NCBI GenBank assembly: GCA_964550845.1
Contig: CAZKAD010000001.1
Location: 21,342-85,341, forward strand
Direction: 5' to 3'
Origin: an uncultured Gammaproteobacteria bacterium
GTDB lineage: Bacteria > Patescibacteriota > Patescibacteriia > Magasanikbacterales > UBA922
DNA length: 64,000 nt
Shown: piece after piece, positions 2,824 to 53,866 of the stretch
Layout of the letters: each line of letters starts with the position of its first letter
Position numbering within the stretch: position 1 is the stretch's first letter
Position numbers and translations under genes: made by a program
Notes under the pieces: model-generated
Database searches by the model: none
Seen by the model: only the letters and a program-made list of their open reading frames with translations
Told to the model about the DNA's origin: nothing

Positions 2824-5781
2824 ATGTCACAGCTCACAACAGGAACTGCGTATATTTTTTCATGGTTTGCGGAAGATGACGGAATGATCCATGCATTCGG
2901 AATGACTCCAGAAAACGAAACTGTTCACTTAATTATTCTCAACTTTACTCGATATTGTTATATTGAATTACCTCCCGAAATTGACTGGGACAATCCAATT
3001 CATCAACGAAGTTTCCAAGAAGCTGTTGGATCAATGAATCAAGAAATTTATCCTCAACAAATGGTCTTTATGAAAAAGCATCGATTGTATCGAGCTCATA
3101 TGGTCAAAACCGATCAAGGTTATCAACGATGTTTATTCCCTTATCTTTTTGTTTGTTTCAAAACGCAAAAGGCAATGATTGATTTCACTCGTCGAGTTAG
3201 TTGGGGAATCTATATTGAATCAATTGGAAGAAAAATTAATTTACGTTCGCATGAACAAGACGCAAGTCCTTTTTTGCAACTCGCAGTTTGTCGCAACATC
3301 CCAATTACCGGTTGGATTGACTTCACTGGAGTGAAGCAATCCGATGACTGGAATAGCTCTTATTGTAAACATGAATATGTACTCAATTGGAATACACTGT
3401 CTGCTTCGAAAGACCAAAAATTGCTCAAGACTTTGCCCAAAGTTAAAATCGTTTCTTTTGATTGGGAGGCAAACTCAACCAATCATAATCGAATGCCAAA
3501 TGAAAAGAAGCCCGGAGATGTCTTGTTTCAATGTTCGATGAGTGTGTTTGAACATGGATCGGATAAAATCGAAAATCATCTTTTGACTCTTGGTTATCCT
3601 GATCCAGCGAAAGTAAGTGAAGGAAGAACCGATCCAGTCAAAATTCATCACTACGCAACTGAAGCTGACATTTTGGAAGGATTTGCCAAAATGATCATTG
3701 AGCTCGATCCACAAGTGATTACCGGATACAATATCATGGGCTGGGATTTCAATTATATGATTGCCCGCGCTAAACTAAACAATGTCTATCAATCATTTTC
3801 CCAATTTGGATACATCAAAGGAATGTCTGCGAAAGAAAAGAACATTACCTGGTCAAGCTCCGCATTTAGCAAACAAAGTTTTTCTTATCCTGCAATTGCC
3901 GGACGAATTATTATTGACATGCTTCCTGTGATTAAAAGAGGGTTTAAGTTTGCCAGTTACACGTTGAGTAATGTTTCAGTTGAAATCCTCGGGCCGAATC
4001 AAACCAAGGATCCTCTCACTCCACAAGGCATTTTCAAATGCTTTCAAATTGGATCACCTGAGACACTATCGATAGTAGGCAAGTATTGTGTGAGAGATTC
4101 CGAAGTCACTTCGTTTCTGTTCCAAAAACTCAAGACTTGGGTTGACAGCTGTCAAATGTCAAGTATTATGGGTGTTCCGATCTTTGATCTTTCGACACAA
4201 GGACAACAAGTTAAGATTTACGCTCAAATTTATCGAGATTGTTTTCTTAAGAATACGGTCGTTGAAAAGAATGGCTATGTCTGTGAAAAAGACGAGAGTT
4301 ATACCGGTGCAATCGTGTTGACACCTATTCCAGGTCTTCATGAAAATGTGGTTACGTTTGATTTCGCCAGTCTGTATCCATCAGTAATTGTGGAAAAGAA
4401 TATTTGTTATTCGACTTGGGTGATTGATCCAAATATTCCAGATGAAGATTGTCACGTACTTGAATGGGAGGATCATATTAATTGTCCTCATGATACCGAA
4501 AAAAGATCCGACAAAAAGAAAGTGATGTGTGCGAAACGTAAATATCGATTTCTTAAGACTCCGCAAGGAATTTTGCCAAATATTCTCACGCGATTGACTG
4601 CTGAAAGAAAGAAAGTGAAGAAAGAGCTCGAGGGGGTTGAAGAAAAGGAGAAGGAAGAAAAAGATCCTATGTTGAAGAAAGATTTGAAGATGTATGCAAC
4701 CATTCTTGACATGACTCAAATTGCAATTAAAACTGTATCCAATAGTATGTATGGTGTGATGGGTGTTACCGAAGGCCGACTGCCTTTTATGCCAGGTGCA
4801 ATGTCGACTACCGCTGGTGGTCGAGCTGCAATTATGAAAGCGAAGAAAATCATCCTTGATCGTCATCCTGGCAAAGTTATTTATGGTGATACCGATTCGT
4901 TGATGTATATCTTCGATGATATGAAGCGTTTCGAAGATGAAAAGGGGAAGATCGATTACAAAGCTCTTGAAAAGTTCTGCAACAAAGTGTCAGAGGAAAT
5001 CTCTTGTCACTTTGCAAAACCGATGAAACTCGAATTTGAAAACATTGCGGAACAATTCTTTATTTTAACCAAGAAAAGATACATTTCAAAACTCAGTAAT
5101 GGAAAAGTTAAAAAGCGAGGTATCATGTTAACTCGACGAGATAACGCCGCTTGCTCGAGAAAAGCTTATGAAGGATTGCTTAATCTTATCTTTCAAAAGG
5201 CACCCCTGGATAAAATTTTTGACTATATTGTTGAAGCTCTCAATCAAATCTATAGCCATTATTACCCAAGCAAAGATTATGCAATCACAAAGAGTATCAA
5301 AGACATCGATACTTACAAAGTCAAAGCTCTTTCAACCGAACTAGTCGCTCGTCAACGACAATTGAAGAATAAGTTTCTTCCTTATGTTGAACCAAACAAT
5401 CCACAGGCCTCGAAGATCGAAGATGAATACAAATTTCGATCTTTGCCAGCCCATGTTCAGTTGGCTGAAACAATGAGATCAAGAGGGTCAATTGTTGAGT
5501 CTGGAAGTCGATTTGCTTATGTAGTGACTACTAAAGGTGGTCCTTCGGGAAAAATGTGGCAAAAGATCGAAAGTCTTGAATATTATTCTCGTCATCAGGG
5601 AATGATCAATTTAGATAGCAATTACTATGGCAAGGCCCTGATTAATCCGTTTGATGAAGTACTTCAAATCATGTTCCAACGACAAAATTTTACTAAACAA
5701 CAACACAAAATTCGTCTGCAAAAATATGAGATGCTCCAAGAGCTGAAGAGATTGATGGCTCCTCAACTTATTGCTGAATAA
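2824..5781 (+). CDS. polB: family B DNA polymerase
   Basis: Exo motif FDWEA. Pol motif A DFASLYPS, motif B KTVSNSMYG and motif C YGDTDS. 985 aa, contiguous, no intein. Confidence 0.95.
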   Translation: MSQLTTGTAYIFSWFAEDDGMIHAFGMTPENETVHLIILNFTRYCYIELPPEIDWDNPIHQRSFQEAVGSMNQEIYPQQMVFMKKHRLYRAHMVKTDQGYQRCLFPYLFVCFKTQKAMIDFTRRVSWGIYIESIGRKINLRSHEQDASPFLQLAVCRNIPITGWIDFTGVKQSDDWNSSYCKHEYVLNWNTLSASKDQKLLKTLPKVKIVSFDWEANSTNHNRMPNEKKPGDVLFQCSMSVFEHGSDKIENHLLTLGYPDPAKVSEGRTDPVKIHHYATEADILEGFAKMIIELDPQVITGYNIMGWDFNYMIARAKLNNVYQSFSQFGYIKGMSAKEKNITWSSSAFSKQSFSYPAIAGRIIIDMLPVIKRGFKFASYTLSNVSVEILGPNQTKDPLTPQGIFKCFQIGSPETLSIVGKYCVRDSEVTSFLFQKLKTWVDSCQMSSIMGVPIFDLSTQGQQVKIYAQIYRDCFLKNTVVEKNGYVCEKDESYTGAIVLTPIPGLHENVVTFDFASLYPSVIVEKNICYSTWVIDPNIPDEDCHVLEWEDHINCPHDTEKRSDKKKVMCAKRKYRFLKTPQGILPNILTRLTAERKKVKKELEGVEEKEKEEKDPMLKKDLKMYATILDMTQIAIKTVSNSMYGVMGVTEGRLPFMPGAMSTTAGGRAAIMKAKKIILDRHPGKVIYGDTDSLMYIFDDMKRFEDEKGKIDYKALEKFCNKVSEEISCHFAKPMKLEFENIAEQFFILTKKRYISKLSNGKVKKRGIMLTRRDNAACSRKAYEGLLNLIFQKAPLDKIFDYIVEALNQIYSHYYPSKDYAITKSIKDIDTYKVKALSTELVARQRQLKNKFLPYVEPNNPQASKIEDEYKFRSLPAHVQLAETMRSRGSIVESGSRFAYVVTTKGGPSGKMWQKIESLEYYSRHQGMINLDSNYYGKALINPFDEVLQIMFQRQNFTKQQHKIRLQKYEMLQELKRLMAPQLIAE

Positions 5782-5833: not shown

Positions 5834-7060
5834 ATGGGTGCAATTACATCAAACAATAAATTGACCGCAGCTGGAGCTCTCGATCTACAACAAAAACTTT
5901 ACGAAGTTCGAGAAAGTCTCAAGCAGAAATTCAAATATTCTGAAATTAAGTATTCAGATCTTGCTACAGATCCAGAAATATTTCGACAATATGAGGGTGG
6001 TCGATTCGAAATACATATTTTAGCCACTGTTAATAAGGGAGGAAAACCTTATGTTCTTCACACCCTTCTTCCCGATTTACGTGACGTTGAAGGATACAAG
6101 AATATTTTTTTGAGTTACATTCAAATTATTGAACAAGTTCAGCCTTATGTTTCGAAAACTTATCTCCCGGTGATGAAAGGATGGACTGTTATGAAGTATA
6201 ACATTGACGATCATGATATTTTTCTCCCTGCAATTGTGTATGAACCATTTGTTATAACTGATTCAGTCGCAAGTTGGGAAAGCGCGGAATTAACACCATA
6301 CAGCTGTCAAGATGTTTATCAATTTGCGATTAAATCATTTCAAACTTTGATTGTAACTAGAAATCTAAAAGCAGGTTGTCATTTCTCTCGATTTGCGACT
6401 TTCTTTGCTCTTAATGGAAAAGGACTTGTTATGCTTCCGGGCAAACCTTGTAACCAAGGAGCCAATAAATGTGATCAGGACTATTTTAATGATAAAAGTC
6501 CGGCTGCAATTGATGAAATTAATGATATTACTTATCTACTTATTCAATTGATGGTTGGAAATGGGGCAAATCAGTTCATCCAAAAAATAAGCTCTAACAC
6601 TAATCAAATCAATCAAGGAAAACAATTTCTCTCGCAACATGTTGGAAAACTTTGTCAATTGCTGCTCGAGCCTCTTCTCCAAACCGACATTTCAAATATC
6701 TATACTCCGGAAGCATATCTCGAGTATCTCCGATCGAAACCAGTTCTAGACATGTTCACCAAAGTCAGTGGAATTGAACAGACAGACGAAGATGTGCAAA
6801 AAATTGCCCAAGATCTCGCGCTAATTAAATCTGTAAATCAAACTGCATTTCAAGAATATTGTGGTTCTCGAGAACCTTTGAGAGAAGTACTCCGATCGAT
6901 GTTGAAATGTCTCGGAGAAGCAGACAAAACTTTATCTGCGGATGAAAAAGTCAAATTGATTAAGCAGATGATTTCAGATTCAAAAGTTAATCTTTTTGCC
7001 GTTTGCTACAAAGGCGAGGAACTCGAACAAGAAATATCCAATTTGGCAAACCAAGAATAA
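5834..7060 (+). CDS. hypothetical protein with N-terminal MGAITS (N-myristoylation consensus)
   Basis: First ATG after a TTG-started track ORF. MGxxxS at the N-terminus. No other motifs. Confidence 0.55.
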   Translation: MGAITSNNKLTAAGALDLQQKLYEVRESLKQKFKYSEIKYSDLATDPEIFRQYEGGRFEIHILATVNKGGKPYVLHTLLPDLRDVEGYKNIFLSYIQIIEQVQPYVSKTYLPVMKGWTVMKYNIDDHDIFLPAIVYEPFVITDSVASWESAELTPYSCQDVYQFAIKSFQTLIVTRNLKAGCHFSRFATFFALNGKGLVMLPGKPCNQGANKCDQDYFNDKSPAAIDEINDITYLLIQLMVGNGANQFIQKISSNTNQINQGKQFLSQHVGKLCQLLLEPLLQTDISNIYTPEAYLEYLRSKPVLDMFTKVSGIEQTDEDVQKIAQDLALIKSVNQTAFQEYCGSREPLREVLRSMLKCLGEADKTLSADEKVKLIKQMISDSKVNLFAVCYKGEELEQEISNLANQE

Positions 7061-7115
7061 TAATCTAGCAAAAAATTCAACTTTTTCTTTTTCTTTTCTT
7101 TCCAGAAAAGAAATC

Positions 7116-8768
7116 ATGGCGAATGTAAGTATTTACGATCTTTCTTTCAAAGGAAAGGAAAAACAGACCGGATGGTTTGGAGGAGAAACAATCGCAGAAA
7201 TTGACTCTGGACTCCAAATTACAAGCAAACAAGTCCTTCCGAATGAACAAATCTACAAGGCAGTGAAAAAAGTTCCTTCTGATAAGACTCTTCCAGATGA
7301 CTTTGTTGTCCAAGTTTTTTTTACCTTTGATGAACAAAGCTTTATTCGAAACAAGAATGCTGTCCGAATGATGAAGAAAATCAGTGACAATATGGCACCA
7401 AACGGATTTTATTCAATGCCCTCGTTACCTTTTGTCTATTCTTTCTATCCAAATGATCGTCAAGTGAATCAAAGGACCAATACTACCTACGCAATCATGA
7501 AACCTATCCCAATGTGGAGGCATATTCTCGACACTTCAACGCGAAAATTCCACTGGTTTATGTTCAATGCGCTTTCCACTTTGTTCTATCTTCACAAGCT
7601 CGGAATCATTCACCGAAATATCTCTCCCGACAGTGTCTACTTTGTAACTGACTCGAATGATAATCCTTCGATTTTTATTCATAATTTTGCTTCTGCTTGC
7701 TGGATGAATGATCAAACCGATTTAACCCAGATTGTGAAGTGTAATGAAACTGCTCCACTCCTCGACTACATCGATCCAGTCCTTCTTCCGAAGAGTCGAG
7801 TTCAACTTCAAAAGCTGCAACAACAAGCAGCGAGTAATTTGAGTGAGGCAAGAAAAAAGGAACTTATTGGTCAAATTGACCAGGCTCAGGCAGAATTCAA
7901 TAAGAAAAAGAATGATTTCAATGCGGCTGGAAAAGGAAATCAGATCCAGAATGACCCCAGTATGAAAGTGTTAAGGGAAAAAATTGGTAGATTGAGGGGA
8001 GAACTTGGCGGAGCTCCTCCGCGAGATGTACGTGATAATCAGGCGACTTATGCTCCATTCACTGACAAGTCTGATGTCTACGCAATGGGAATGTTATTTT
8101 ACCAAATTGTGACACAAGGAATTGGTTATGAAAACCAAAATCGTGATCCTTGGGATGAAGCTCTCGCTTCAAATATTGATTTTCCTCAAAATCAAGACAA
8201 GATTTATGCCTCAAGAAAATTGAGATTATCGCGATCAAATCTTGATGCCAGACTCCAAAATTTAATTCTCAAGATGATTCACCCAAATCCAGCACAACGC
8301 TGTGATGCTGAAGAGGGTCTTTTACAATTGATTGTTTCCGCGCCTGGTGCAATTGAGGAAAAAGTTGCCCAATTTAGAATCTCAAATATGGAAGGAGAGC
8401 CACAACGAGCAATTATGAGATTTCTTGGATCTCAATCTCATCCAGAAATTCCCAATTCGAACGAAGGTACGTTGGCTAAAAGAATGCAATTAAAATGGTC
8501 AGACATCGATCAACAAATTCAAAACAGTGAAGAGGCTGCGAATAAGTATGGTTCGATTCGAGAGCGAAAATTTAGTCCTGAACAACAAGGATCTTCATGG
8601 GGACAAGGTTTTTATAAGGCCGGTTTGGCTGCTGCACCTCTCGCAGTACCAGCCGCCGTAGCTGTATTTAATCCATTTGCTGCAGGTGCAATGGTTGCCG
8701 GAGCGGGTTTAATCAAAGTTCACGATCGGTTTCAACAGAAATTGTCACAACGATGGAGAAAAGGATAA
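7116..8768 (+). CDS. divergent protein-kinase-like protein (possible pseudokinase) with coiled-coil and Gly/Ala-rich hydrophobic C-terminus
   Basis: HRNISPDSV in place of HRDLKPxN, NFA in place of DFG, and DVYAMGMLFYQIV like subdomain IX. Upstream hairpin 7089-7112. Confidence 0.55.
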   Translation: MANVSIYDLSFKGKEKQTGWFGGETIAEIDSGLQITSKQVLPNEQIYKAVKKVPSDKTLPDDFVVQVFFTFDEQSFIRNKNAVRMMKKISDNMAPNGFYSMPSLPFVYSFYPNDRQVNQRTNTTYAIMKPIPMWRHILDTSTRKFHWFMFNALSTLFYLHKLGIIHRNISPDSVYFVTDSNDNPSIFIHNFASACWMNDQTDLTQIVKCNETAPLLDYIDPVLLPKSRVQLQKLQQQAASNLSEARKKELIGQIDQAQAEFNKKKNDFNAAGKGNQIQNDPSMKVLREKIGRLRGELGGAPPRDVRDNQATYAPFTDKSDVYAMGMLFYQIVTQGIGYENQNRDPWDEALASNIDFPQNQDKIYASRKLRLSRSNLDARLQNLILKMIHPNPAQRCDAEEGLLQLIVSAPGAIEEKVAQFRISNMEGEPQRAIMRFLGSQSHPEIPNSNEGTLAKRMQLKWSDIDQQIQNSEEAANKYGSIRERKFSPEQQGSSWGQGFYKAGLAAAPLAVPAAVAVFNPFAAGAMVAGAGLIKVHDRFQQKLSQRWRKG

Positions 8769-16274: not shown

Positions 16275-18797
16275 TCAAAATTCATTTTGAATTGGTATCA
16301 CAATCACGGGATCTTTGATTGCAGCCATCTTTAGAATCCGAAGTTGAGACTCAAGATCCTTAATCTTCTTTTCATAATCAAGTTGACGTCGTTTGAAATC
16401 ACTGGTTGTTTCTTGGAGTTTAAGTTGATTATTTTTCAAACCGTCTTCAAGTGTCTTAACATGTTGTTTCTTTCCTTCAAGTTGAGACTTCAGTTCTTCT
16501 TCGACAATCGATAATTTTGAATACTTTTCATGGAGTTGAAGGAGTTCTTCTTTTGTCTTTGTATCTTCCTCGGTTGGTTTCCACGTTTTACTCATATTCT
16601 CACGAAGAGTATTGTTTTCATCACACAAGTTAGCCACTTTACCTCGAAGTCCAATATTTTCTTCTTCTAAAGTTTGAGTTCGAACATTTGCAAATTTAAT
16701 TGCTTGTTCGGCAGTCTCATCTTTCTCTTTTAGCAATAAATCGACTTTACTCAATTGTCCTTCGAGTTGAGCAATTTTATCGAGATAATTTGTTTGATTC
16801 GCTCGAAGAGATTCAATTTCGATTATCTTTTGATTCAAATCATCCTGGCAATGTCGAAGATCATCTCGTGAACGATCCGCAACAGATCGAATATTTTCAA
16901 TTTCATTTTTCACTAATGAAATACTTTTCTGAAGTTCAGTGACTAACGCAGTTTTACTGTCAAGTTCTTCAGCCATCTTTTGGAATTGATCAAGTGATTC
17001 TTCATAATTAGCTGGCGTGAGAGTCGGTTGAACAATCAAATTGTATTCTTTCTTAAAGTCTTTCACATCGATACCTTTCTTTTCACAAAGTTCAATTAGC
17101 TTATTAAGATCTTTAGTCAAAGCTGAAATAATGATTTGTTGAGTAGCAAGTTTTTCATTCGCTTCAAAGAGAAGACGTTTGTATTCTTCAACATTCATTT
17201 CAAGATTAACCACCGGTTTGTTCAAAATGGTTTGAGTAATAGCACCAAATCTCAGCGTTGAAAGAGTTTCTTCATAATTGAATTTCGCAGGTGAACAAGT
17301 AATTACCAAATGAGTTTTACTGTTTCCACCGAGGGAATCGGTCAAAAGACGAGTCAATTTTGAATCTCGATATGGAATGAAACTCTTTTTTTCAGCCAAA
17401 CTTCGAATCACCAATCCAAGAGTCAATAATGATTTGTTAGTTGAACTGGCTTGCTTCAACAGCAATCCTTCAGCCTTTGTTTTCGCTACCTTTTCAGATC
17501 CGGCCAAATCGACAAACACTATTCGCGAGATAATTTTCTTTCCAGTCTTCAGTTCATTTTGTTGAAGATGCATCACCAGTACTGAATGACTTCTCGACGA
17601 ATGAGCGTTCATCGCCGTTTCAGCAACTGTTCGATTCAATTCTCCCTTTCTCATTACACGGACAGCATCTTCAAAACAATTGACATAAGTTTCAGTCACA
17701 TCTTCAATCCATAATCCTCGGAAACGATCCTCACGAATCTTTAGGTCATCGCGAAGAGGTGAGAGCAGATCTCGAATTCGCTCGAGATAAATTTCAACAT
17801 ATGACATGCTAACCAAAAATTCATATCCTTTTTTCCCACGAATCGCGGTAAATAAATCTTTGATTAACCGTGGAACTACACCCATCTCAGTTTCGGTTTT
17901 CCAGAGTTCTCCCTCCTGAGACAGAGCATCGGGATTGTCTACCGATGCAGCGTATCCAGTCATTGTAGTAGTTTTTCCTGAATTATGTGTAATAGTTCCA
18001 TCGGCAAGCAAAAATCGTTCAGGACGATCTTTAATCGGTTCAAGTTGAAATCCTGAATACAACCCCATTCCAACATCTTCAATTTCGAATGAATAAGTTT
18101 CAAGGCCCTTCGAGGCCGGTTCAAGGCCCTTCGGGGTTGGTCCAATTTTCTTATCCTCTTTTCCGATCATTCGAACTCCAAGATAATCTTGTTTATTCTT
18201 TTGTTTCAATAGTTCCTTGACTGACATATCAATCAGCTTTGACTCAAATTGGAGTGTCAAAACGTGATCAAGATTCACCGTGTAAAAACTTTTCTTTTTC
18301 ACATCTCGAATTTTAAACATATGTGAAATTCCAGTAAACAACTTGATCACTTCTCGAACATTTCCTTTTTCGTCAACAAGTTTGTCACCGACTTGAACAT
18401 CTCGTGCTTGAATAATAGATCCATCGATCAGTAAGATTAGTGTCTCAGGAGAAAGGCATCCAGACTGACCATAAGCAAAGATAGTTGCATTGTATCCTTG
18501 AAGAATCTCATCAAGTAAAGGTTTACCAACAGCTTGATATACTTGTTCTTGAGTTGCTTTTTCTTCAAACACTTTGTCGTAATAATATCGATTATCTTTT
18601 ACCTCTTGTGGAAGATTAACAACGTTCCCATTCACCACAATCATTCGATTACCTCCATTTTTTAATTCCGTTTCATTACAAGGGCGAAATCGACAAAAAA
18701 CTTTAACATTTCGATCATCTCTTGGCTCTGTCTCATCCGATTTTTTAGACTCTGGTTTAGACTCTCGGGGAGAAAATGGTTTTGATTTTGCTTTCAT
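16275..18797 (-). CDS. kinesin-like motor protein with coiled-coil tail, interrupted by a mini-intein in the P-loop
   Basis: VKVFCRFRP and IFAYGQSG, then CLSPETLILLIDG...LLADGTITHN, then SGKTTTMTG. Switch I NAHSSRSHS and switch II DLAGSE. About 400 aa of heptad-rich tail. Confidence 0.9.
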   Translation of the reverse strand: MKAKSKPFSPRESKPESKKSDETEPRDDRNVKVFCRFRPCNETELKNGGNRMIVVNGNVVNLPQEVKDNRYYYDKVFEEKATQEQVYQAVGKPLLDEILQGYNATIFAYGQSGCLSPETLILLIDGSIIQARDVQVGDKLVDEKGNVREVIKLFTGISHMFKIRDVKKKSFYTVNLDHVLTLQFESKLIDMSVKELLKQKNKQDYLGVRMIGKEDKKIGPTPKGLEPASKGLETYSFEIEDVGMGLYSGFQLEPIKDRPERFLLADGTITHNSGKTTTMTGYAASVDNPDALSQEGELWKTETEMGVVPRLIKDLFTAIRGKKGYEFLVSMSYVEIYLERIRDLLSPLRDDLKIREDRFRGLWIEDVTETYVNCFEDAVRVMRKGELNRTVAETAMNAHSSRSHSVLVMHLQQNELKTGKKIISRIVFVDLAGSEKVAKTKAEGLLLKQASSTNKSLLTLGLVIRSLAEKKSFIPYRDSKLTRLLTDSLGGNSKTHLVITCSPAKFNYEETLSTLRFGAITQTILNKPVVNLEMNVEEYKRLLFEANEKLATQQIIISALTKDLNKLIELCEKKGIDVKDFKKEYNLIVQPTLTPANYEESLDQFQKMAEELDSKTALVTELQKSISLVKNEIENIRSVADRSRDDLRHCQDDLNQKIIEIESLRANQTNYLDKIAQLEGQLSKVDLLLKEKDETAEQAIKFANVRTQTLEEENIGLRGKVANLCDENNTLRENMSKTWKPTEEDTKTKEELLQLHEKYSKLSIVEEELKSQLEGKKQHVKTLEDGLKNNQLKLQETTSDFKRRQLDYEKKIKDLESQLRILKMAAIKDPVIVIPIQNEF
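17982..18458 (-). mobile_element. mini-intein (159 aa; Cys1 ... His-Asn, +1 Ser) inserted between G and S of the kinesin Walker A GQSG^SGKT
   Basis: Block A CLSPETLILLIDG and terminal THN followed by S. The flanking exteins rejoin to the canonical AYGQSGSGKTTTM. No endonuclease domain. Contains a GC-rich 15-nt duplication (GLEPASKGLE). Confidence 0.8.
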
Positions 18798-18855
18798 CAA
18801 AAGCGATTTCTTTTCTTTTCTTTTCTTTCAGTGGAAAAAAGCTTTCTTTTTCTTG

Positions 18856-21062: not shown

Positions 21063-22580
21063 ATGCAAGCTCTTCTTGATCAAATTGACGACTCAGTTCG
21101 TTCAATGGACGATGATATTCGAGTTTTGGTCGACAACCTTAAACAACTTAATACCGAAGATATTTTAGAAATACATCTTGATATCCTTTCGAAAAAGCTT
21201 TCCAACGTCCCAGACACTTTTGAGTCTCGAGATCAAGTGATTGAAGTTATTCTCGATTCATGTAAATATGCTGAAAAAATGCGGATTTTTAACGGTCATT
21301 CAAACGGAATTTACAACAACGTTTCGTATCCTTATGCAGTCGCAATTCAAACGATATGTTATTTTGACGTCTACGGAGAAATGACCAAACAAAGTTTGCT
21401 TGAATGCATTTCTTTTGTTGCTTTGTTGGAAGAACCTTCTTGTAGTGATGACTTGATCTCTGAATGGTATGAAGATAAAAAAGATATTCATCTCGAACAA
21501 TTTCAATATGCACTTCAATTTGCGTCGAAGATTCGAGACATTTATCTTCCTACACCAGATAGAGAGATTGGTTTATTCACTGGAGATTATCTCTCAGTTG
21601 AAGTTCACCAAAAAATAATCGAATTTCTGAAAAAGAATCGGTTTACTGACCGAGGATCTTATCTTGAATTACTTCCAGAAAAAGATCGTCAGGCATTTCT
21701 TGCTTTTTCGAGGATTACTCCACAATGGATAGCAAAAAGAGCTTTTGTACCTCATCAAGAAGATAAAAGTATGGAACAAGGTTCTCACGCACTTGTTCGA
21801 AGATGGATTGATCCTGAAACTCATGAATATTACGTTGTTAAAACATACGGAATTAATTCTGAATACAACGCTGGTCTTCGAGAACTTCTCGCATTTCATA
21901 TCTTTTCACATCCGAATATTATTCGATGTCATAGCTGGGCAGTGAATGAAGATTTTACTGCACTTCAATTTTTCCTCGAAGATGGAGGTGAAGAAGTGAA
22001 CAATAAATATACCAGTGTAAGATGGATCAAAAAATATGTTCCACAAATTCTTCGTGCTCTTCGTCACATTCATACTCGAGGTTTTGCTTATCGTGACTTA
22101 AAAATGTGTAATCTTGTCTTTCAGAGGGGAAAAGTGAAACTGATTGATCTTGGAATGATGAGAAGAACAGTTACTTTTGGAGGATCGAATGAAATGATGG
22201 CTTTCGGAGTCGGTCCAGCCGAAGTATTTGAAGGCAGAACCATTTATCCTGGTTCGGTTGATATTTGGTCACTTGGAATACTCATGTGTGTGCTGTACAA
22301 AAAGAATCTCGCTATTGGCTATGGTAAATGTAAGATTATGCCTCCTTGGAATAAAAGATCACGAATTCGAGTCTTGTGTATCAAGGATTTTCTTGAGATA
22401 CTGACCAAAGATGAATCCGAAGAACTTGAATCTTTTCAAGAGAAATATCCGGGCTATGGTAATGTCGCCTTTACCATTTCAGAAGTTCGTCATCAAAAAC
22501 TTCTCGCGTTGATTCGAAGATGCTTTCAAAAAGATTCCCCCACTGCTGGAGAACTACTTCGAGATCGATTCTTTCATTAA
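21063..22580 (+). CDS. serine/threonine protein kinase with N-terminal helical domain
   Basis: YVVKT, YRDLKMCNLV, IDLGMM and SVDIWSLGIL. Confidence 0.85.
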   Translation: MQALLDQIDDSVRSMDDDIRVLVDNLKQLNTEDILEIHLDILSKKLSNVPDTFESRDQVIEVILDSCKYAEKMRIFNGHSNGIYNNVSYPYAVAIQTICYFDVYGEMTKQSLLECISFVALLEEPSCSDDLISEWYEDKKDIHLEQFQYALQFASKIRDIYLPTPDREIGLFTGDYLSVEVHQKIIEFLKKNRFTDRGSYLELLPEKDRQAFLAFSRITPQWIAKRAFVPHQEDKSMEQGSHALVRRWIDPETHEYYVVKTYGINSEYNAGLRELLAFHIFSHPNIIRCHSWAVNEDFTALQFFLEDGGEEVNNKYTSVRWIKKYVPQILRALRHIHTRGFAYRDLKMCNLVFQRGKVKLIDLGMMRRTVTFGGSNEMMAFGVGPAEVFEGRTIYPGSVDIWSLGILMCVLYKKNLAIGYGKCKIMPPWNKRSRIRVLCIKDFLEILTKDESEELESFQEKYPGYGNVAFTISEVRHQKLLALIRRCFQKDSPTAGELLRDRFFH

Positions 22581-22622
22581 ACGTTCCCGAAGAACTGGTT
22601 AAAAGACTTTCAAAAATAAAGT

Positions 22623-22647
22623 AAACATTCCTCTCGAGGAATGTTTA
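22623..22647. terminator. palindrome TAAACATTCCTC-TCGA-GAGGAATGTTTA
   Basis: Perfect 10-12 bp stem between convergent genes. Confidence 0.6.
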
Positions 22648-22655
22648 AGAGATAA

Positions 22656-23144
22656 TTAAGCTTTCTCAATTCTTAACCTCAGCATATAAACAAATGGATT
22701 GCGTAAATCTTGAACTATTTCAAGCAGATCTTTTCGCCGCTGTTCAAATTCTGATATCTTGAAATTTGTATACTTCGAATCGAGAAAGTTGTCAAGAAAA
22801 TCGGCAAGTTTAATTAACAGTGCATCTTCAGAAAGAGATGGTATTTTCTTTTTCATGTAGGCAAGTTTACCTACTTGAGCAATTTCGATTGGATTGTTGG
22901 TCAATTCTTTCACCAGCTTCATTACACGTTCAGAAAATTTCTTCTGGAGTTCCTCTGGTGTTGTTTTAGTATCTTCAAGTGTATCATGGAGCAAGGCAGC
23001 AACTAAAACTTCTTCGTCTTGTATCCCTTCTTGTCGTAGAATTGATGCAACACTACAACAATGAATCTGATAAGACATTCCATTTCCTTTTCTTTTTTGA
23101 CCATCATGCTTTTCGACAATGAATTGCAAAGCTTTTTGAATCAT
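22656..23144 (-). CDS. HD-domain protein, MESH1/HDDC3-like (p)ppGpp hydrolase homolog
   Basis: ALQFIVEKHDGQKRKGNGMSYQIHCCSVASILRQEGIQDEEVLVAALLHDTLEDT matches the SpoT/RelA hydrolase signature (H.GQ.R..G.PYI.H...VA.IL......D...I.AALLHD..EDT). Confidence 0.7.
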   Translation of the reverse strand: MIQKALQFIVEKHDGQKRKGNGMSYQIHCCSVASILRQEGIQDEEVLVAALLHDTLEDTKTTPEELQKKFSERVMKLVKELTNNPIEIAQVGKLAYMKKKIPSLSEDALLIKLADFLDNFLDSKYTNFKISEFEQRRKDLLEIVQDLRNPFVYMLRLRIEKA

Positions 23145-23161
23145 TTTGATTAGTTTGAGAT

Positions 23162-23168
23162 AAATTGA
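23162..23168 (+). promoter_or_regulatory. AAATTGA motif (plus) for the kinase at 23217
   Basis: Divergent promoter pair. A second copy on the minus strand at 23198-23205 serves the HD-domain gene. Confidence 0.5.
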
Positions 23169-23216
23169 TTTTTATTTCCGAGAGAAAGAAGGGTAAATCA
23201 ATTTATTTCATCAGCG

Positions 23217-24566
23217 ATGAAAGCTCGATTTTTAAAGTTGACTCTTATTCCAAATCCGGCAAACTATCGAACAAAATATATCAGTTACATGAGTCAAATC
23301 GCCGTTAAACTGAATATTGAAGATAATATTTTGATTGGTGCAATTGAACTTTTTGATCGACTGCCGTATATTTCCGAAGAATGTTCATTTTTGTTTGCGT
23401 TTGGATGTTTTTATTTAGCTGTACTTCTTTACGAAGGGGGCAACGACATTCGAGAAAAATTGCCTCGATGTTGCAAAGGTGTTTATGAAATTGGTGATTT
23501 GACCAAGATAGTAGATACTTTGGTGGTTGAAATCATGACATGGTTACCTGCACCTATTTATCCAAATAGCTTTTCAAGAGCCTATCATATCGTTACTGGA
23601 AAGCATTTAACGAAAGAAGAAGAACGCTCACTCGTTTTGATTTATCTTAAACAATCAAGTACTCTTGAATCAACTGAATTGAAAACTTTAGCTCTTCCTG
23701 AAAATCAACAAAAGAGAATCAAAGAATTTATGAATCAACCAAGTAAAAATTCTTTGTTTCAAGAGTATCATCCGGATTTTCAAAAAGGCAATTTGCTTGG
23801 ATCAGGTGAATGGGGTCGTGTTGTTGCTCATCCAAATGAATGGGGGAAAGTGATTAAAAAATCACTCAACAAAGAAGAAGCATATGAAACTTTTGTCCGA
23901 GAGATTGCACTGCTCTCTTCAATTAGTCACCCTCACATTATTAAAATGCACGGATGGAGTTACAATGAAGGCAAATTTTATCTCATTCTCGATAAAGGAA
24001 TACCAATTAAATTAACTTCAAGAACAATTCAACAAGAGGGATCTAAACTTCTTCGAGCTCTTGATCATCTTCATTCACAAGGATTTATTCATCGCGACTT
24101 GAAACCAGATAATATATTGTATGTGAATGAAAATATTACTCTTTGTGATTTCGGGATTACTAGAACTCAAGCAAGACGAGGATTGACTGGTATGAGAGTG
24201 CCAGCTGCAAATATCCCTCCCGAAATGCTTAAACAAAGAAAATACAATTACGATTCTGCAGTCGATATTTGGGCTTTCGGATTGTTAGTTGCCTGGATGG
24301 TTAAAGATTTTATTTTTAGTGATATTGTCGAAGATAAGGATAGTCATCATAAAATTCAAATGCAAATAATTGGATTCAAGACTGGTTACAAATTTCCAGA
24401 TAAACAACACACTCCGAGATATTCCCTTCATGACATTGAGAACGAAGACGCAAGAGACTTAATTGAAAGATGTCTGACTGATTGTCCACAACAAAGACCG
24501 AAAGCGAAAGATTTAATTAATCATCCTTTTTTAACCAGTCCCGAAGGGACGTTTAAGGCAAAGTAA
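23217..24566 (+). CDS. serine/threonine protein kinase with about 190-aa N-terminal (possibly cyclin-like) domain
   Basis: GSGEWGRVV, VIKK, HRDLKPDNIL, DFG and DIWAFGLL. Confidence 0.85.
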   Translation: MKARFLKLTLIPNPANYRTKYISYMSQIAVKLNIEDNILIGAIELFDRLPYISEECSFLFAFGCFYLAVLLYEGGNDIREKLPRCCKGVYEIGDLTKIVDTLVVEIMTWLPAPIYPNSFSRAYHIVTGKHLTKEEERSLVLIYLKQSSTLESTELKTLALPENQQKRIKEFMNQPSKNSLFQEYHPDFQKGNLLGSGEWGRVVAHPNEWGKVIKKSLNKEEAYETFVREIALLSSISHPHIIKMHGWSYNEGKFYLILDKGIPIKLTSRTIQQEGSKLLRALDHLHSQGFIHRDLKPDNILYVNENITLCDFGITRTQARRGLTGMRVPAANIPPEMLKQRKYNYDSAVDIWAFGLLVAWMVKDFIFSDIVEDKDSHHKIQMQIIGFKTGYKFPDKQHTPRYSLHDIENEDARDLIERCLTDCPQQRPKAKDLINHPFLTSPEGTFKAK

Positions 24567-52147: not shown

Positions 52148-53866
52148 TTAAAGAAATGAGGCGCAATGTTGCAACTGATCGGCGTTTATTTTTCTTCCAA
52201 CCGCTGCATTTGGAATAGTTTGGAGGTCCATTGGAGGTGCGCTTGGAATTTGAAGTGCTCGAGGGATAAGCTGATCGACTACAGGAGCTGATGTCGGAGT
52301 TGGAGCCATGCTCAGTTGTGGTACACCCGATTGTGATGGAGCCATACTCAACCGACCAGCTTGAGCTGAAGTCATCAAAGGAAAGCCTGGGACACTTCTT
52401 CCGGAACCTTGTGAGACTGACATTGCCCGAACTGAAGATTTGTTCAAACCAAAAGTGGCCTGAAGAGCGGGAGAAACTGAGCTTCTTGCTTTTCTTCGAA
52501 TCGATCGAACCAATGAATCCTTTTTCTTCTTTGAGATATTTTCAATCCCCATTTGCTGAGCAATTTCTTTCAAGTCAGCCACCTTCAATTCTCGAAGCTC
52601 AGTCGTTGAAGGAATCTCCATTGATCGATCGTCAACAATTTTTGGTTGATCGACTACTCCAGCTACACCAATATCCTTGTTGAGCAAAATTCGTCTCAAA
52701 GAGCGAGGAGAATATCTTGAATATCCCCTGACACCTTCAGCCTTGGCGAGCTCTCGAAGGTCACCCACGCTCAGATCTTGAACCACAGATTCGTAATCTC
52801 GGACGTTGTATTTACGTGGTGAAATAGCTCTTACTGATTTCTGTTTGATCTTTTCAATTAAATCAATTTTCTTCAAATCCTTCTCATCGATAACGTTGAG
52901 ATCTTTTGCAATTTTGTGTAGGGCTTTTGCACTCTTCAAACTCAAGTTAACTTCTCCACTTTCATTTCCAATCAACAAAGGTCGTCGAGGGCTCTTCAAT
53001 CCGTAAGGAACATCCGCCTCGGGCAATGATTTGGCGATATCAAGAAACATCTCACGCATGATGGCCAATGCTTCTTTGCGAGATGATCCACTTGGAACCT
53101 TGACACCAATCTTTTTTCCGAAACTCACCATTTCTTTGACCTTCATATCGAGAACATCTTGCCAAGCAATTCCGTCAAGAGACAGATCTTCAACTCTTGG
53201 AGCAACTTTTGATCCTCGCAATTGAGGCAAACTGTTCGGGTCGACTTTGATTCGTTGAGCGAAAGAATTCAAAGCTGCTTGAGAACCATAGACCGGACGA
53301 GAATTGATTTCAACGCGAGCTGAGTCTTTAGGCAAACCTCGAGGAATGTCACAGTCTTGTTTATCAAGATTGCAAATGAGTTCATCACGACATCCGACAA
53401 AGTCACCTTCCGAACTCACATTCAAATTACATTTTTCACTGTCGAGGAAAGCCAACAGAGCACTTCTCAACAATTTCAGATCTCTATCACTGTCACGAAA
53501 TTGGGAATATCCAGGCATATTCACTTTCTTCGCAATTTCCTTCAGGCCTGAGATATAAGGTTCTTCGATAATTTTTTGTCTCATCACTGCACGTCGACCT
53601 TGTTTGGTTCGGCTTTCTTTTTGTTCTGCGCGTCCAGAAACAAACGATTTGGCTGCGAGAAGAGTTTCACGCATCACTTCTCTTTTTTGAGATGGAGTTC
53701 GATATTTCCGATTCAATTCAGCCAAGCAGCTTTCATCACAACTTTCGATTGCGAGGAGAAATTGTTTCCAAATTTGATCTACTTCCTCTGATTCGAGGTA
53801 AAGAATATCGTTCGGGGTTGCGACTTTAGCAAATCTTGATTCAGGATCTAAGCGAATGTTCGACAT
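52148..53866 (-). CDS. GC-rich protein with about five SAP/Rho-N-like helix-extended-helix motifs and a Pro/Ala/Ser-rich tail
   Basis: Repeats such as LRELAKAEGVRGYSRYSPRSLRRIL and LKEIAQQMGIENISKKKKDSLVRSI. About 48% GC versus about 35% for the window. Confidence 0.6.
   Translation of the reverse strand: MSNIRLDPESRFAKVATPNDILYLESEEVDQIWKQFLLAIESCDESCLAELNRKYRTPSQKREVMRETLLAAKSFVSGRAEQKESRTKQGRRAVMRQKIIEEPYISGLKEIAKKVNMPGYSQFRDSDRDLKLLRSALLAFLDSEKCNLNVSSEGDFVGCRDELICNLDKQDCDIPRGLPKDSARVEINSRPVYGSQAALNSFAQRIKVDPNSLPQLRGSKVAPRVEDLSLDGIAWQDVLDMKVKEMVSFGKKIGVKVPSGSSRKEALAIMREMFLDIAKSLPEADVPYGLKSPRRPLLIGNESGEVNLSLKSAKALHKIAKDLNVIDEKDLKKIDLIEKIKQKSVRAISPRKYNVRDYESVVQDLSVGDLRELAKAEGVRGYSRYSPRSLRRILLNKDIGVAGVVDQPKIVDDRSMEIPSTTELRELKVADLKEIAQQMGIENISKKKKDSLVRSIRRKARSSVSPALQATFGLNKSSVRAMSVSQGSGRSVPGFPLMTSAQAGRLSMAPSQSGVPQLSMAPTPTSAPVVDQLIPRALQIPSAPPMDLQTIPNAAVGRKINADQLQHCASFL

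Follow-up and report, generated by a model that had tools for sequence, protein, structure and literature searches.

A small alarmone hydrolase of the single-domain RelA/SpoT type encoded by a eukaryotic large DNA virus

It is not settled whether (p)ppGpp acts as a signal anywhere but in bacteria and plastids. There are reports of ppGpp in metazoans, and MESH1 hydrolyses it, but the phenotypes of MESH1 are confounded by its NADPH-phosphatase activity. Asp91 confers monophosphatase activity on Mesh1: in variant D91A the activity on ppGp dropped 26-fold while ppGpp hydrolysis was little changed (PMC11554896), a rule that comes from one study of one enzyme. In the MESH1-NADPH complex, W138, H141, R142 and Y146 contact the nicotinamide riboside (bioRxiv 10.1101/325266). 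Mesh1-L, which stands sister to Mesh1 (classification of Atkinson 2011, PMC3153485), has a 'messy' phylogeny prone to horizontal gene transfer and no defined nicotinamide-riboside motif. XccSAH, an enzyme of the Mesh1-L type, retains the Asp but not this motif and prefers alarmones over NADPH about 1000-fold in kcat/Km; as it still hydrolyses NADPH slowly, that reaction does not strictly depend on the motif (PMC9765508).

In a stretch of 64,000 nucleotides, hereafter the window, a first-pass annotation had pointed to a 162-residue protein of MESH1 size that carries the full (p)ppGpp-hydrolase HD signature and is encoded by a eukaryotic virus. The gene and its two neighbours are as follows.

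22656..23144, minus strand: small alarmone hydrolase (SAH) gene; ATG start, 162 aa, one RelA/SpoT-type HD hydrolase domain, stop codon at 22656-22658
23217..24566, plus strand: Ser/Thr protein kinase of 449 aa, divergent from the SAH gene (Pkinase E=1.5e-42), equally placed in the related loci L001, L002 and L095
21063..22580, plus strand: Ser/Thr protein kinase of 505 aa, convergent with the SAH gene (Pkinase E=1.6e-24), equally placed in L095

The annotated signature is complete: the translation of this minus-strand frame contains KHDGQKRKGNGMSYQIH and VAALLHDTLEDT together with the HD motifs and the ED diad. Pfam HD_4 (PF13328) matches at E=1.1e-16 with 61.4 bits, above its curated threshold of 27.2, NCBIfam spoT_relA (TIGR00691, positions 1-120) matches with E=4e-21, and phmmer against the PDB finds Lmo0812 (1e-16) and human MESH1 (3.6e-16). 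The AF2 model has a pLDDT of 95.8. Its best fold matches are human and fly MESH1 (TM 0.85), with human MESH1 (3nr1) at the top of the Foldseek list (TMq 0.85, rmsd 2.5 Å, about 32% identity). Each of the 33 PDB matches with E<=0.001 is a hydrolase of the Mesh1, SAH, Rel or SpoT kind, and the first generic HD protein appears at rank 50 (E=0.04); the view that would have undermined the annotation, namely that generic HD phosphohydrolases are the closest structures, thus does not hold. A profile built from the viral SAH and its 60 nearest homologues gave 211 bits for MESH1 and 191 for Drosophila Mesh1, and at most 114 for the other solved SAH and Rel structures (Lmo0812 114, RelH-Cg 102, PaSAH 95, Aph1 59). 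By this profile the viral protein is nearer to Mesh1 than to the paSpo, pbcSpo, Aph1 or RelH types, which places it in the Mesh1/Mesh1-L super-group. It consists of the hydrolase domain alone, with neither an N-terminal extension nor synthetase, TGS or ACT domains, and the flanking genes encode kinases rather than RSH parts. Profile scores and dN/dS put the match far above chance. At the level of sequence and structural model, the reading frame is confirmed as a small alarmone hydrolase of the single-domain RSH type.

Comparison with MESH1 centres on three sets of codons.

22983..22988, minus strand: His53-Asp54, the metal-binding HD dyad (human MESH1 H61-D62); invariant columns in alignments of 61 and 124 sequences
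22971-22976, minus strand: Glu57-Asp58, the ED diad (human E65, D66); invariant columns in the same two alignments
22896..22898, minus strand: Asn83 (codon AAC), at the position of the Mesh1 phosphatase determinant Asp91 in the alignment to MESH1

The 2H2D Mn2+ site is intact, with H28, H53, D54 and D115 (human H35, H61, D62 and D122) all in invariant columns, and base-stacking Arg18/Lys19 are kept, as are Tyr25 and Asn119 (human R24, K25, Y32 and N126). MESH1 numbering equals viral numbering plus 8, gap-free from H53/H61 to T82/T90. Asn occupies the Asp91 position throughout the viral clade (the window copy, P0001, P0002 and P0003) and in jumbo-phage and archaeal relatives; from the IMG/VR alignment, whose C-terminal columns (W138, R142, Y146) look misaligned, only the Asp91 column was taken. 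Asn is able to ligate metal through its carbonyl oxygen. The nicotinamide-riboside motif (W138, H141, R142, E145, Y146) is mostly gone: only E145 is kept, as E132. The alpha8-alpha9 loop that carries Trp138 is deleted, leaving this region a net 6 residues shorter, and H141 is replaced by K, R142 by I, Y146 by F, K97 by Q and W149 by Arg. Since Asp91, the Trp138 loop and other nicotinamide-riboside contacts are absent, the viral SAH is probably a poor monophosphatase for NADPH, CoA or ppGp.

Outside the viral clade, identity to the viral SAH reaches at most about 52%. Among the nearest relatives are SAHs on metagenomic jumbo-phage-like contigs (51-52%), one archaeal contig, named proteins of Methanosarcina, Paraburkholderia and Novimethylophilus (named archaeal and bacterial proteins share about 42-50%) and the SAH of the Burkholderia jumbo phage BcepSauron (46%). 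An alignment-based scan of IMG/VR found 452 viral stretches that encode SAH relatives; with the viral SAH as a single query, IMG/VR gave no match and the GTDB genomes gave one cyanobacterial locus only, at 35% identity. In distance-based neighbour-joining (NJ) trees of about 170 columns, the viral clade was monophyletic in 99/100 bootstraps, nested in a clade of at least 20 tips that all lack Asp91 in 100/100, and separate from human and fly Mesh1 in 100/100. The enclosing clade is made up of SAHs of the Asn/Ser type, which come from jumbo phages, archaea and bacteria. Of the features that define Mesh1 sensu stricto (Asp91, the nicotinamide-riboside motif, grouping with eukaryotic Mesh1 in NJ trees), the viral protein has none. 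Its residue differences from MESH1 and its separate grouping in the trees lead us to predict a pyrophosphohydrolase rather than an NADPH phosphatase. Derivation from a eukaryotic host Mesh1 was considered and discarded in view of the residues and the NJ trees.

The window encodes PolB, a capping enzyme with guanylyltransferase and N7-methyltransferase (GTase+N7-MTase), Rpb1 and kinesin, and judged by its genes it is part of a eukaryotic large DNA virus (NCLDV). An assignment to Mimiviridae, initially drawn from the promoter motif AAAATTGA, was dropped because of the PolB matches and because this motif also occurs in the DNApol promoter of iridovirus IIV-6. In a Foldseek search of BFVD with the PolB model (pLDDT 90.4), the named matches that came out best were to Marseillevirus-like and Pithovirus-like MAGs and to an iridovirus, at 26-29% identity; for Klosneuvirus, Hokovirus and Megavirus the identity was no more than 18-21%. 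The names of PolB homologues gave no taxonomic information. The lineage is an uncultivated NCLDV, possibly a Pimascovirales-like one. Pfam domains of the neighbouring genes revealed no RSH synthetase or toxin partner near the SAH gene. L002, L003 and L004 have a gene called on the side that corresponds to the convergent kinase. The contexts of P0046 and P0022 contain LRR and LRR-kinase neighbours, which gave no assignment to virus, eukaryote or bacterium.

By composition and codon use (GC 0.35, GC3 0.28, codon-usage correlation with other viral genes r=0.82) the SAH gene is a resident viral gene. Its kinase-flanked position is kept in orthologues of only 57-59% identity, and the common synteny was found in independent assemblies from different samples. 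Orthologue comparisons gave dN/dS values of 0.109, from 26 synonymous and 13 nonsynonymous changes, and of 0.168, which places the gene under purifying selection. Thirteen variants at >=90% identity occur across many metagenomes, with no catalytic changes among the full-length ones compared; the window copy alone has N84, where the other full-length cluster members have D84 (11/11).

The first-pass annotation had also described divergent transcription from a kinase gene via back-to-back AAATTGA motifs. Divergent transcription is borne out by the Ser/Thr kinase on the plus strand, which is separated from the SAH gene by a 72-nt spacer. Both motifs are present (23162-23168, plus strand; 23198-23204, minus strand) and promoter-like, but their geometry is interleaved rather than back-to-back, each octamer adjoining the start codon of the other gene and lying 55-60 nt upstream of its own. 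The elements around the gene are the following.

23198..23205, minus strand: promoter-like octamer TAAATTGA, in sense orientation for SAH, 60 nt upstream of the SAH ATG
23161..23168, plus strand: octamer TAAATTGA, in sense orientation for the kinase, whose ATG follows 55 nt downstream; the distance to the SAH ATG is just about 18 nt
22622..22647, no strand assigned: perfect 12+12-nt palindrome TAAACATTCCTC/GAGGAATGTTTA, 9 nt beyond the stop codon of SAH, within the 75 nt that separate SAH from the convergent kinase

Both spacer octamers match AAAATTGA at 7/8 positions, a motif tied to early genes in mimivirus and present too in the IIV-6 promoter (PMC5294985). A sense motif lies <=120 nt upstream of 24/58 genes, compared with 4.6+/-2.1 for random windows. 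The SAH-side octamer is kept in place as TAAATTGA in L095 and L002 and as AAAAATTGA in L003/L004 (perfect in L003), while the remaining spacer has diverged. Solely from the 7/8 motif match, we infer early transcription of SAH from an (A/T)AAATTGA element. The palindrome is a candidate hairpin signal for the 3' ends of both SAH and the convergent kinase. The palindrome recurs in L095, where a C>T and a G>A change compensate each other, and L002 and L003 have a different palindrome at the equivalent place. The hairpin is present in the predicted MFE and centroid folds; since folding energy by itself is not significant (z-score -1.2 for the 80-nt stretch), the proposal is based on conservation and the compensatory change.

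Overall, we conclude with moderate confidence that this is a catalytically competent SAH of the prokaryote/jumbo-phage Asn/Ser-type branch, which an uncultivated NCLDV lineage acquired horizontally and keeps by purifying selection, and which acts as a cytosolic (p)ppGpp/(p)ppApp hydrolase. The protein, a RelA/SpoT-type HD domain that stands alone and depends on Mn2+, would have been taken up from the prokaryotic or phage world. Its gene would be under early transcription from the (A/T)AAATTGA element, and the enzyme would work in the host cytoplasm or the virus factory as a (p)ppGpp/(p)ppApp 3'-pyrophosphohydrolase. More speculatively, it could keep alarmones low in the infected cell, so that virus replication would escape a stringent-like brake acting on translation GTPases and on the supply of purine nucleotides. 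A further proposal, which we regard as rather unlikely, sees in it a natural 'separation-of-function' Mesh1-like hydrolase that retained the alarmone pyrophosphohydrolase and lost the NADPH-phosphatase determinants; (p)ppGpp, or else a related nucleotide or tRNA with a 3'-pyrophosphate, would then be a growth-limiting or antiviral signal in the protist cytoplasm that viruses have to remove.

The first-pass annotation had suggested, with metazoan MESH1 as its model, that the viral copy could modulate host stress or ferroptosis pathways or nucleotide pools. As a MESH1-like monophosphatase, the viral enzyme would remove a phosphate from NADPH (or CoA, PAPS) in the cytosol of the host and thereby shift the redox balance or ferroptosis-like death. 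MESH1 is indeed the top structural and profile match, the residues for adenine and the scissile phosphate (R24, K25, Y32, N126) are conserved in addition to E145, a Mesh1-L enzyme without the riboside motif slowly hydrolyses NADPH (PMC9765508), MESH1 binds PAPS (9chy) and CoA is a MESH1 substrate (PMC13221220). However, Asn replaces Asp91 in all clade members, W138 is deleted, H141, R142, Y146, K97 and W149 are replaced, and the clade falls with non-Asp prokaryotic and phage SAHs in 100/100 bootstraps; draining NADPH would presumably also be of little gain to a virus that needs dNTP synthesis. This part of the annotation finds no support in the residues or in the prokaryotic and jumbo-phage relatives, and we consider such an activity unlikely. 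The company of jumbo phages could instead suggest a counter-defence enzyme that reverses a host RelA/SpoT-type toxin or immune effector, either by stripping the toxSAS 3'-pyrophosphate from tRNA CCA ends or by degrading toxic (pp)pApp. Such roles are known for phage and antitoxin SAHs in bacteria: for the 'HD-alarmone PDEases' of jumbo phages, a role against immunity based on alarmones has been predicted (PMC7824862), and toxSAS toxins are neutralised by the PaSpo SAH of phage SSU5 (PMC9712102). The closest SAH relatives are found in jumbo phages, and the 452 IMG/VR stretches extend the list of virus-encoded relatives. Against this, eukaryotic hosts have no known RSH-type immune effector, a synthetase or toxin partner is absent nearby, and a phage-specific target cannot account for a gene that eukaryotic viruses retained while its copies diverged to 57% identity. 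We therefore judge counter-defence to be quite improbable. That the gene is a non-functional passenger, decaying or unexpressed after a recent horizontal transfer or brought in by an assembly chimera, would fit the many orphan transfers in NCLDV genomes and the N84 unique to the window copy, yet it is strongly disfavoured and has hardly any probability in our estimate: dN/dS is 0.11-0.17 with all catalytic residues intact, composition and codon use fit the virus, the octamer and the 3' palindrome (the latter with its compensatory change) are conserved, and the synteny recurs in the independent assemblies.

A constrained virus-encoded SAH without NADPH determinants is indirect evidence that alarmone-type nucleotides matter in the eukaryotic cytoplasm, and the enzyme would serve as a ppGpp-selective hydrolase tool for separating alarmone from NADPH activities. 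It also links the counter-alarmone enzymes of jumbo phages to eukaryotic giant viruses. If the separation-of-function proposal is true, the long-term retention of the enzyme in giant viruses of eukaryotes, and separately of SAHs in Clandestinovirus, Terrestrivirus and a GVMAG, would mark alarmones or related 3'-pyrophosphorylated molecules as a real signal of the protist cytoplasm. If the protein is merely a promiscuous HD hydrolase, it would be an ordinary metabolic gene gained horizontally.

Among described systems, metazoan MESH1/HDDC3 (PDB 3nr1, 5vxa, 9chy; Drosophila Mesh1 3nqw) shares with the viral SAH the single-domain all-alpha HD fold (179 and 162 aa, respectively), the 2H2D site, the ED diad, identical R24/K25, Y32, K119 and N126, and the absence of a targeting peptide; the viral enzyme differs in having Asn83 for Asp91, in the deleted Trp138 loop and in its separate placement in trees. 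Mesh1-L and prokaryotic orphan SAHs (Xanthomonas XccSAH, Methanosarcina/Methanococcoides) are likewise stand-alone hydrolases, whereas the viral protein forms a separate branch, comes from a eukaryotic virus, has Asn instead of the Asp reported for XccSAH and has a shorter C-terminus. Jumbo-phage 'HD-alarmone phosphodiesterases' and other phage SAHs (BcepSauron, Vibrio phages; PaSpo of phage SSU5) are also encoded by viruses, and the nearest jumbo-phage SAHs have Asn91 and the loop deletion in common with it. However, the hosts of jumbo phages are bacteria, for which the existence of (p)ppGpp, (p)ppApp and toxSAS is established, while the virus of the window has a eukaryotic host. In our searches of the literature on giant viruses/NCLDV and Clandestinovirus in combination with MESH1, SpoT and ppGpp, a description of an NCLDV SAH was not found. 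SAH-like proteins are already annotated in giant viruses, namely Clandestinovirus A0A8F8KL62 ('(P)ppGpp synthetase/hydrolase'), Terrestrivirus A0A3G4ZP49 and GVMAG-S-1062768-28 (L031). The first two share the fold of the viral SAH (TMq 0.90 and 0.83) at about 27-30% identity, and the L031 protein is 38% identical and surrounded by genes typical of NCLDVs (RNR small subunit, collagen-repeat, GT2, ankyrin). These three are distant in sequence and probably represent independent acquisitions. As homologues are annotated in Clandestinovirus, Terrestrivirus and the GVMAG, the SAH of the window adds to a kind of giant-virus protein that is already known.

The 162-aa ORF 22656..23144 (minus strand, ATG start) encodes a RelA/SpoT-type hydrolase. 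The (p)ppGpp-hydrolase HD signature claimed for it in the first-pass annotation was borne out: the strings KHDGQKRKGNGMSYQIH and VAALLHDTLEDT are present, Pfam HD_4 (PF13328, the RelA/SpoT hydrolase domain) reaches 61.4 bits where the gathering score is 27.2 (E=1.1e-16), and NCBIfam spoT_relA matches over positions 1-120 (E=4e-21). With phmmer, 23 solved RelA/SpoT-homologue (RSH) hydrolases were matched, headed by Listeria Lmo0812 (1e-16), human MESH1/HDDC3 (3.6e-16) and Drosophila Mesh1 (7.6e-15). We also scored solved proteins with a profile built from the viral protein and its 60 nearest homologues.

Profile scores of solved proteins
Human MESH1 (full length, residues 4-173): 211 bits
Fly Mesh1: 191 bits
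Lmo0812: 114 bits
Long Rel enzymes: about 110 bits
Corynebacterium RelH: 102 bits
PaSAH: 95 bits
(p)ppApp hydrolase Aph1: 59 bits

The protein is a member of the Mesh1/Mesh1-L super-group (Atkinson et al. 2011, PMC3153485) within the small alarmone hydrolases (SAHs). An AlphaFold2 model built on the 61-sequence alignment A1 is an all-helical domain (pLDDT 95.8, pTM 0.91). Its top Foldseek match in the PDB is human MESH1 (3nr1; TMq 0.85, rmsd 2.5 Å, 32% identity), followed by MESH1 in complex with PAPS and with NADPH and by fly Mesh1, and after these by SAHs of bacteria and the hydrolase domains of Rel/SpoT. Each of the 33 matches at E<=0.001 is an RSH hydrolase and no generic HD protein appears before rank 50, so the assignment to the SpoT type rather than to generic HD phosphohydrolases stands. 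Because the protein begins directly with helix 1, there is no space for a transit or signal peptide. In the family alignments all invariant or near-invariant columns are retained, among them the residues of the 2H2D Mn2+ site and of the ED diad, the Arg/Lys that stack on the base and those in contact with phosphate (MESH1 contacts: bioRxiv 10.1101/325266; SpoT counterparts: PMC11554896).

Active-site residues kept in the viral protein
H13, Q16, R18, K19, Y25, H28, H53, D54: human H19, Q22, R24, K25, Y32, H35, H61, D62
E57, D58, T59, K112, D115, N119, D122: human E65, D66, T67, K119, D122, N126, D129

The carrier is a nucleocytoplasmic large DNA virus (NCLDV), in agreement with the eukaryotic-virus setting proposed earlier: the window, from a contig of 259,314 bp, encodes a family-B DNA polymerase (PolB), a fused GTase/N7-MTase capping enzyme, Rpb1, a kinesin and several Ser/Thr kinases. 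The best named BFVD matches of the PolB AlphaFold model (pLDDT 90.4) were Marseillevirus-like and Pithovirus-like MAGs and an iridovirus (26-29% identity), compared with only 18-21% for Klosneuvirus, Hokovirus and Megavirus. Mimiviridae, suggested by the promoter motif, were dropped on this ground, and the matches point to an uncultivated NCLDV, possibly Pimascovirales-like. Several genes of the window have features of their own:

2824-5781, plus: PolB, 985 aa without intein; close relatives (95% and 54% identical) have 1451-1465 aa with intein PF14890, making the intein polymorphic (present/absent) within the lineage
16275-18800, minus: kinesin, 841 aa, with a Hint segment (PF05203 at residues 114-189, and PT-HINT) between motor-domain stretches 30-113 and 272-524, which looks like an intein
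52148-53866, minus: 572-aa protein whose residues 422-455 match a Rho_N (SAP-like) domain; the GC content is locally raised here (0.42 vs 0.36)
54051-56987, plus: Rpb1 ORF of only 978 aa that stops inside domain 5, suggesting that the largest RNA polymerase subunit is split or interrupted

The exact SAH protein and 12 variants at least 90% identical occur on contigs of many independent metagenomes, and the orthologues P0002 (59% identical) and P0003 (57%) have the same location between opposite-strand genes. Where complete, the neighbours are Ser/Thr kinases, as in comparison locus L095; a kinase also lies at one flank in locus L002. Nei-Gojobori dN/dS is 0.109 for the window against L095 (26 synonymous and 13 nonsynonymous differences) and 0.168 for L002 against L003, and composition is virus-like (GC 0.35, GC3 0.28, codon usage correlated at r=0.82 with that of the viral genes pooled). 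Recurrence, kept position, low dN/dS and composition thus make it very unlikely that the gene is a decaying passenger or the product of a chimeric assembly. The flanking kinases (21063-22580 and 23217-24566, both plus) each carry an N-terminal extension of ~190-230 aa without Pfam match, that of the 449-aa kinase looking cyclin-box-like by eye; a third kinase-like ORF lies at 6996-8768. Two genes from the SAH, with synteny kept in L001 and L095, 25077-25547 (minus) encodes a second nucleotide-pyrophosphate hydrolase, a MazG-like/PRA-PH all-alpha NTP pyrophosphohydrolase (E=2.9e-10).

Outside the viral clade, identity to the SAH is about 52% or lower. Named profile-search matches were Methanosarcina, Paraburkholderia and Novimethylophilus proteins, and one archaeal relative adjoins RpoB/RpoH and TrmB. 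Where the best-scoring relatives are on long contigs, they are surrounded by arrays of small genes on one strand, with HNH, R2K, dCMP deaminase and radical-SAM genes, and these contigs look like jumbo phages of 115-330 kb; tblastn against GenBank phages gave 145 records, the best being Burkholderia jumbo phage BcepSauron (46% over 122 aa). In neighbor-joining (NJ) trees the viral clade was monophyletic in 99/100 bootstraps. In 100/100 it fell within a clade of at least 20 tips consisting only of sequences without Asp91, the Mesh1 phosphatase determinant, and in 100/100 apart from human and fly Mesh1. By this placement the gene derives from the SAH pool of prokaryotes and phages rather than from the Mesh1 of a eukaryotic host. 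The contigs of two relatives, P0046 and P0022 (L012, L014), carry many LRR and LRR-kinase genes and mostly give no Pfam matches; these relatives may be further eukaryotic-virus or protist copies.

SAH relatives are encoded on 452 viral stretches in IMG/VR, and in nearly all of the best 80 of these the Asp91 position is Ser or Asn. One of the 452 belongs to the giant-virus MAG GVMAG-S-1062768-28 (L031 7974-8576): its SAH-like protein has 200 aa, is 38% identical and has Thr in place of Asp91, and the gene lies near those for an RNR small subunit, a glycosyltransferase, and collagen-repeat and ankyrin proteins, an ankyrin-repeat gene being adjacent. The structure search of BFVD ranks a Clandestinovirus protein first (TMq 0.90; annotation '(P)ppGpp synthetase/hydrolase') and also finds an HD protein of Terrestrivirus. 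Giant-virus SAH-like genes are thus already in public annotation; our literature search found no discussion of them. The gene is an uncharacterised new addition to a known enzyme family; its carrier is unusual, and annotations of other giant viruses provide precedents.

AAATTGA occurs 94 times in the window (65.8±8.1 expected) and AAAATTGA 40 times (25.9±5.0 expected). The signal is chiefly positional: 24/58 predicted genes have a sense-orientation motif within 120 nt upstream of the ATG, against 4.6±2.1 (maximum 12, 2000 trials) for random 120-nt windows, with a median position of -55 and the extended consensus (A/T)AAATTGAT(T/C)T.

23198-23205, minus: octamer TAAATTGA, promoter-like, at -60 from the SAH ATG
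23161-23168, plus: octamer TAAATTGA of the divergent kinase, at -55 from its ATG
22622-22647: perfect 12+12-nt palindrome, nine nt beyond the SAH stop codon

The divergent kinase and AAATTGA-type motifs described earlier were found; instead of standing back-to-back, the motifs are interleaved, each adjoining the other gene's ATG. L095 and L002 keep the SAH octamer at this position, and L003/L004 have it as a perfect AAAAATTGA, within a diverged spacer. The AAAATTGA octamer precedes 45% of mimivirus genes, is associated with early genes and is present as well in the DNApol promoter of the iridovirus IIV-6 (PMC5294985). The palindrome recurs in L095 with a compensatory C>T/G>A pair, and L002 and L003 have a different one at the equivalent position; the folding energy of the region alone is not significant (z=-1.2). 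The palindrome resembles the hairpin rule by which mimivirus transcripts take their 3' ends.

The SAH is probably an early-expressed, Mn2+-dependent enzyme of the cytosol or virus factory that would remove the 3'-pyrophosphate from (p)ppGpp/(p)ppApp-type nucleotides and hold alarmone levels low in the infected cell. The weakest link is where the host's alarmone would come from: candidates are an RSH of an organelle, a cytosolic synthetase yet to be identified, as in metazoans, and bacteria taken up as prey or living as symbionts. The 'HD-alarmone PDEases' of jumbo phages are proposed to counteract alarmones (PMC7824862). The phage relatives also make counter-defence against RSH-type toxins plausible, with tRNA 3'-pyrophosphate or (pp)pApp as substrate, but no such toxin system is known in eukaryotes and we regard this as quite unlikely. 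That the gene is a non-functional passenger is hardly credible, being contradicted by selection and conservation.

A MESH1-like phosphatase of NADPH, CoA or PAPS is unlikely as well, despite the fold. Mesh1 favours 3'-monophosphate substrates, with Asp91 standing in for the substrate beta-phosphate at the second metal site; D91A causes a 26-fold loss on ppGp and affects ppGpp hydrolysis little, and SpoT, without the Asp, is a pyrophosphohydrolase (Zhou et al. 2024, PMC11554896). The stretch from H53/H61 to T82/T90 aligns gap-free, so viral Asn83 (codon AAC, 22896-22898, minus) occupies the Asp91 position, as Asn does in all viral-clade members. The adjoining Asn84 (22893-22895, minus) is strain-specific, being Asp in the other 11 full-length members of the at least 90% identical cluster and in both distant orthologues. 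Compared with the MESH1-NADPH complex (bioRxiv 10.1101/325266), most nicotinamide-riboside (NR) contacts are also lost.

NR contacts of human MESH1 in the viral protein
K97: Gln
W138: within a 5-residue deletion of the alpha8-alpha9 loop
H141: Lys
R142: Ile
E145: kept
Y146: Phe
W149: Arg

Asn83, the lost NR motif and the separation from Mesh1 in the trees argue against the MESH1-like NADPH action proposed in the first-pass annotation, of which the RelA/SpoT-type hydrolase part stands. Among 120 homologues, 80 have both Asp91 and Trp138; Asp91 is absent in 39, most of which also lack the Trp. The Mesh1-L enzyme XccSAH retains the Asp without the NR motif and acts on NADPH with 3.6e2 M-1 s-1 compared with 5e5-1e6 for alarmones (PMC9765508). 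Since the viral SAH lacks both features, it should be an alarmone pyrophosphohydrolase more selective still than XccSAH. It has the look of a natural Mesh1-like enzyme selective for ppGpp that viruses of eukaryotes have kept.
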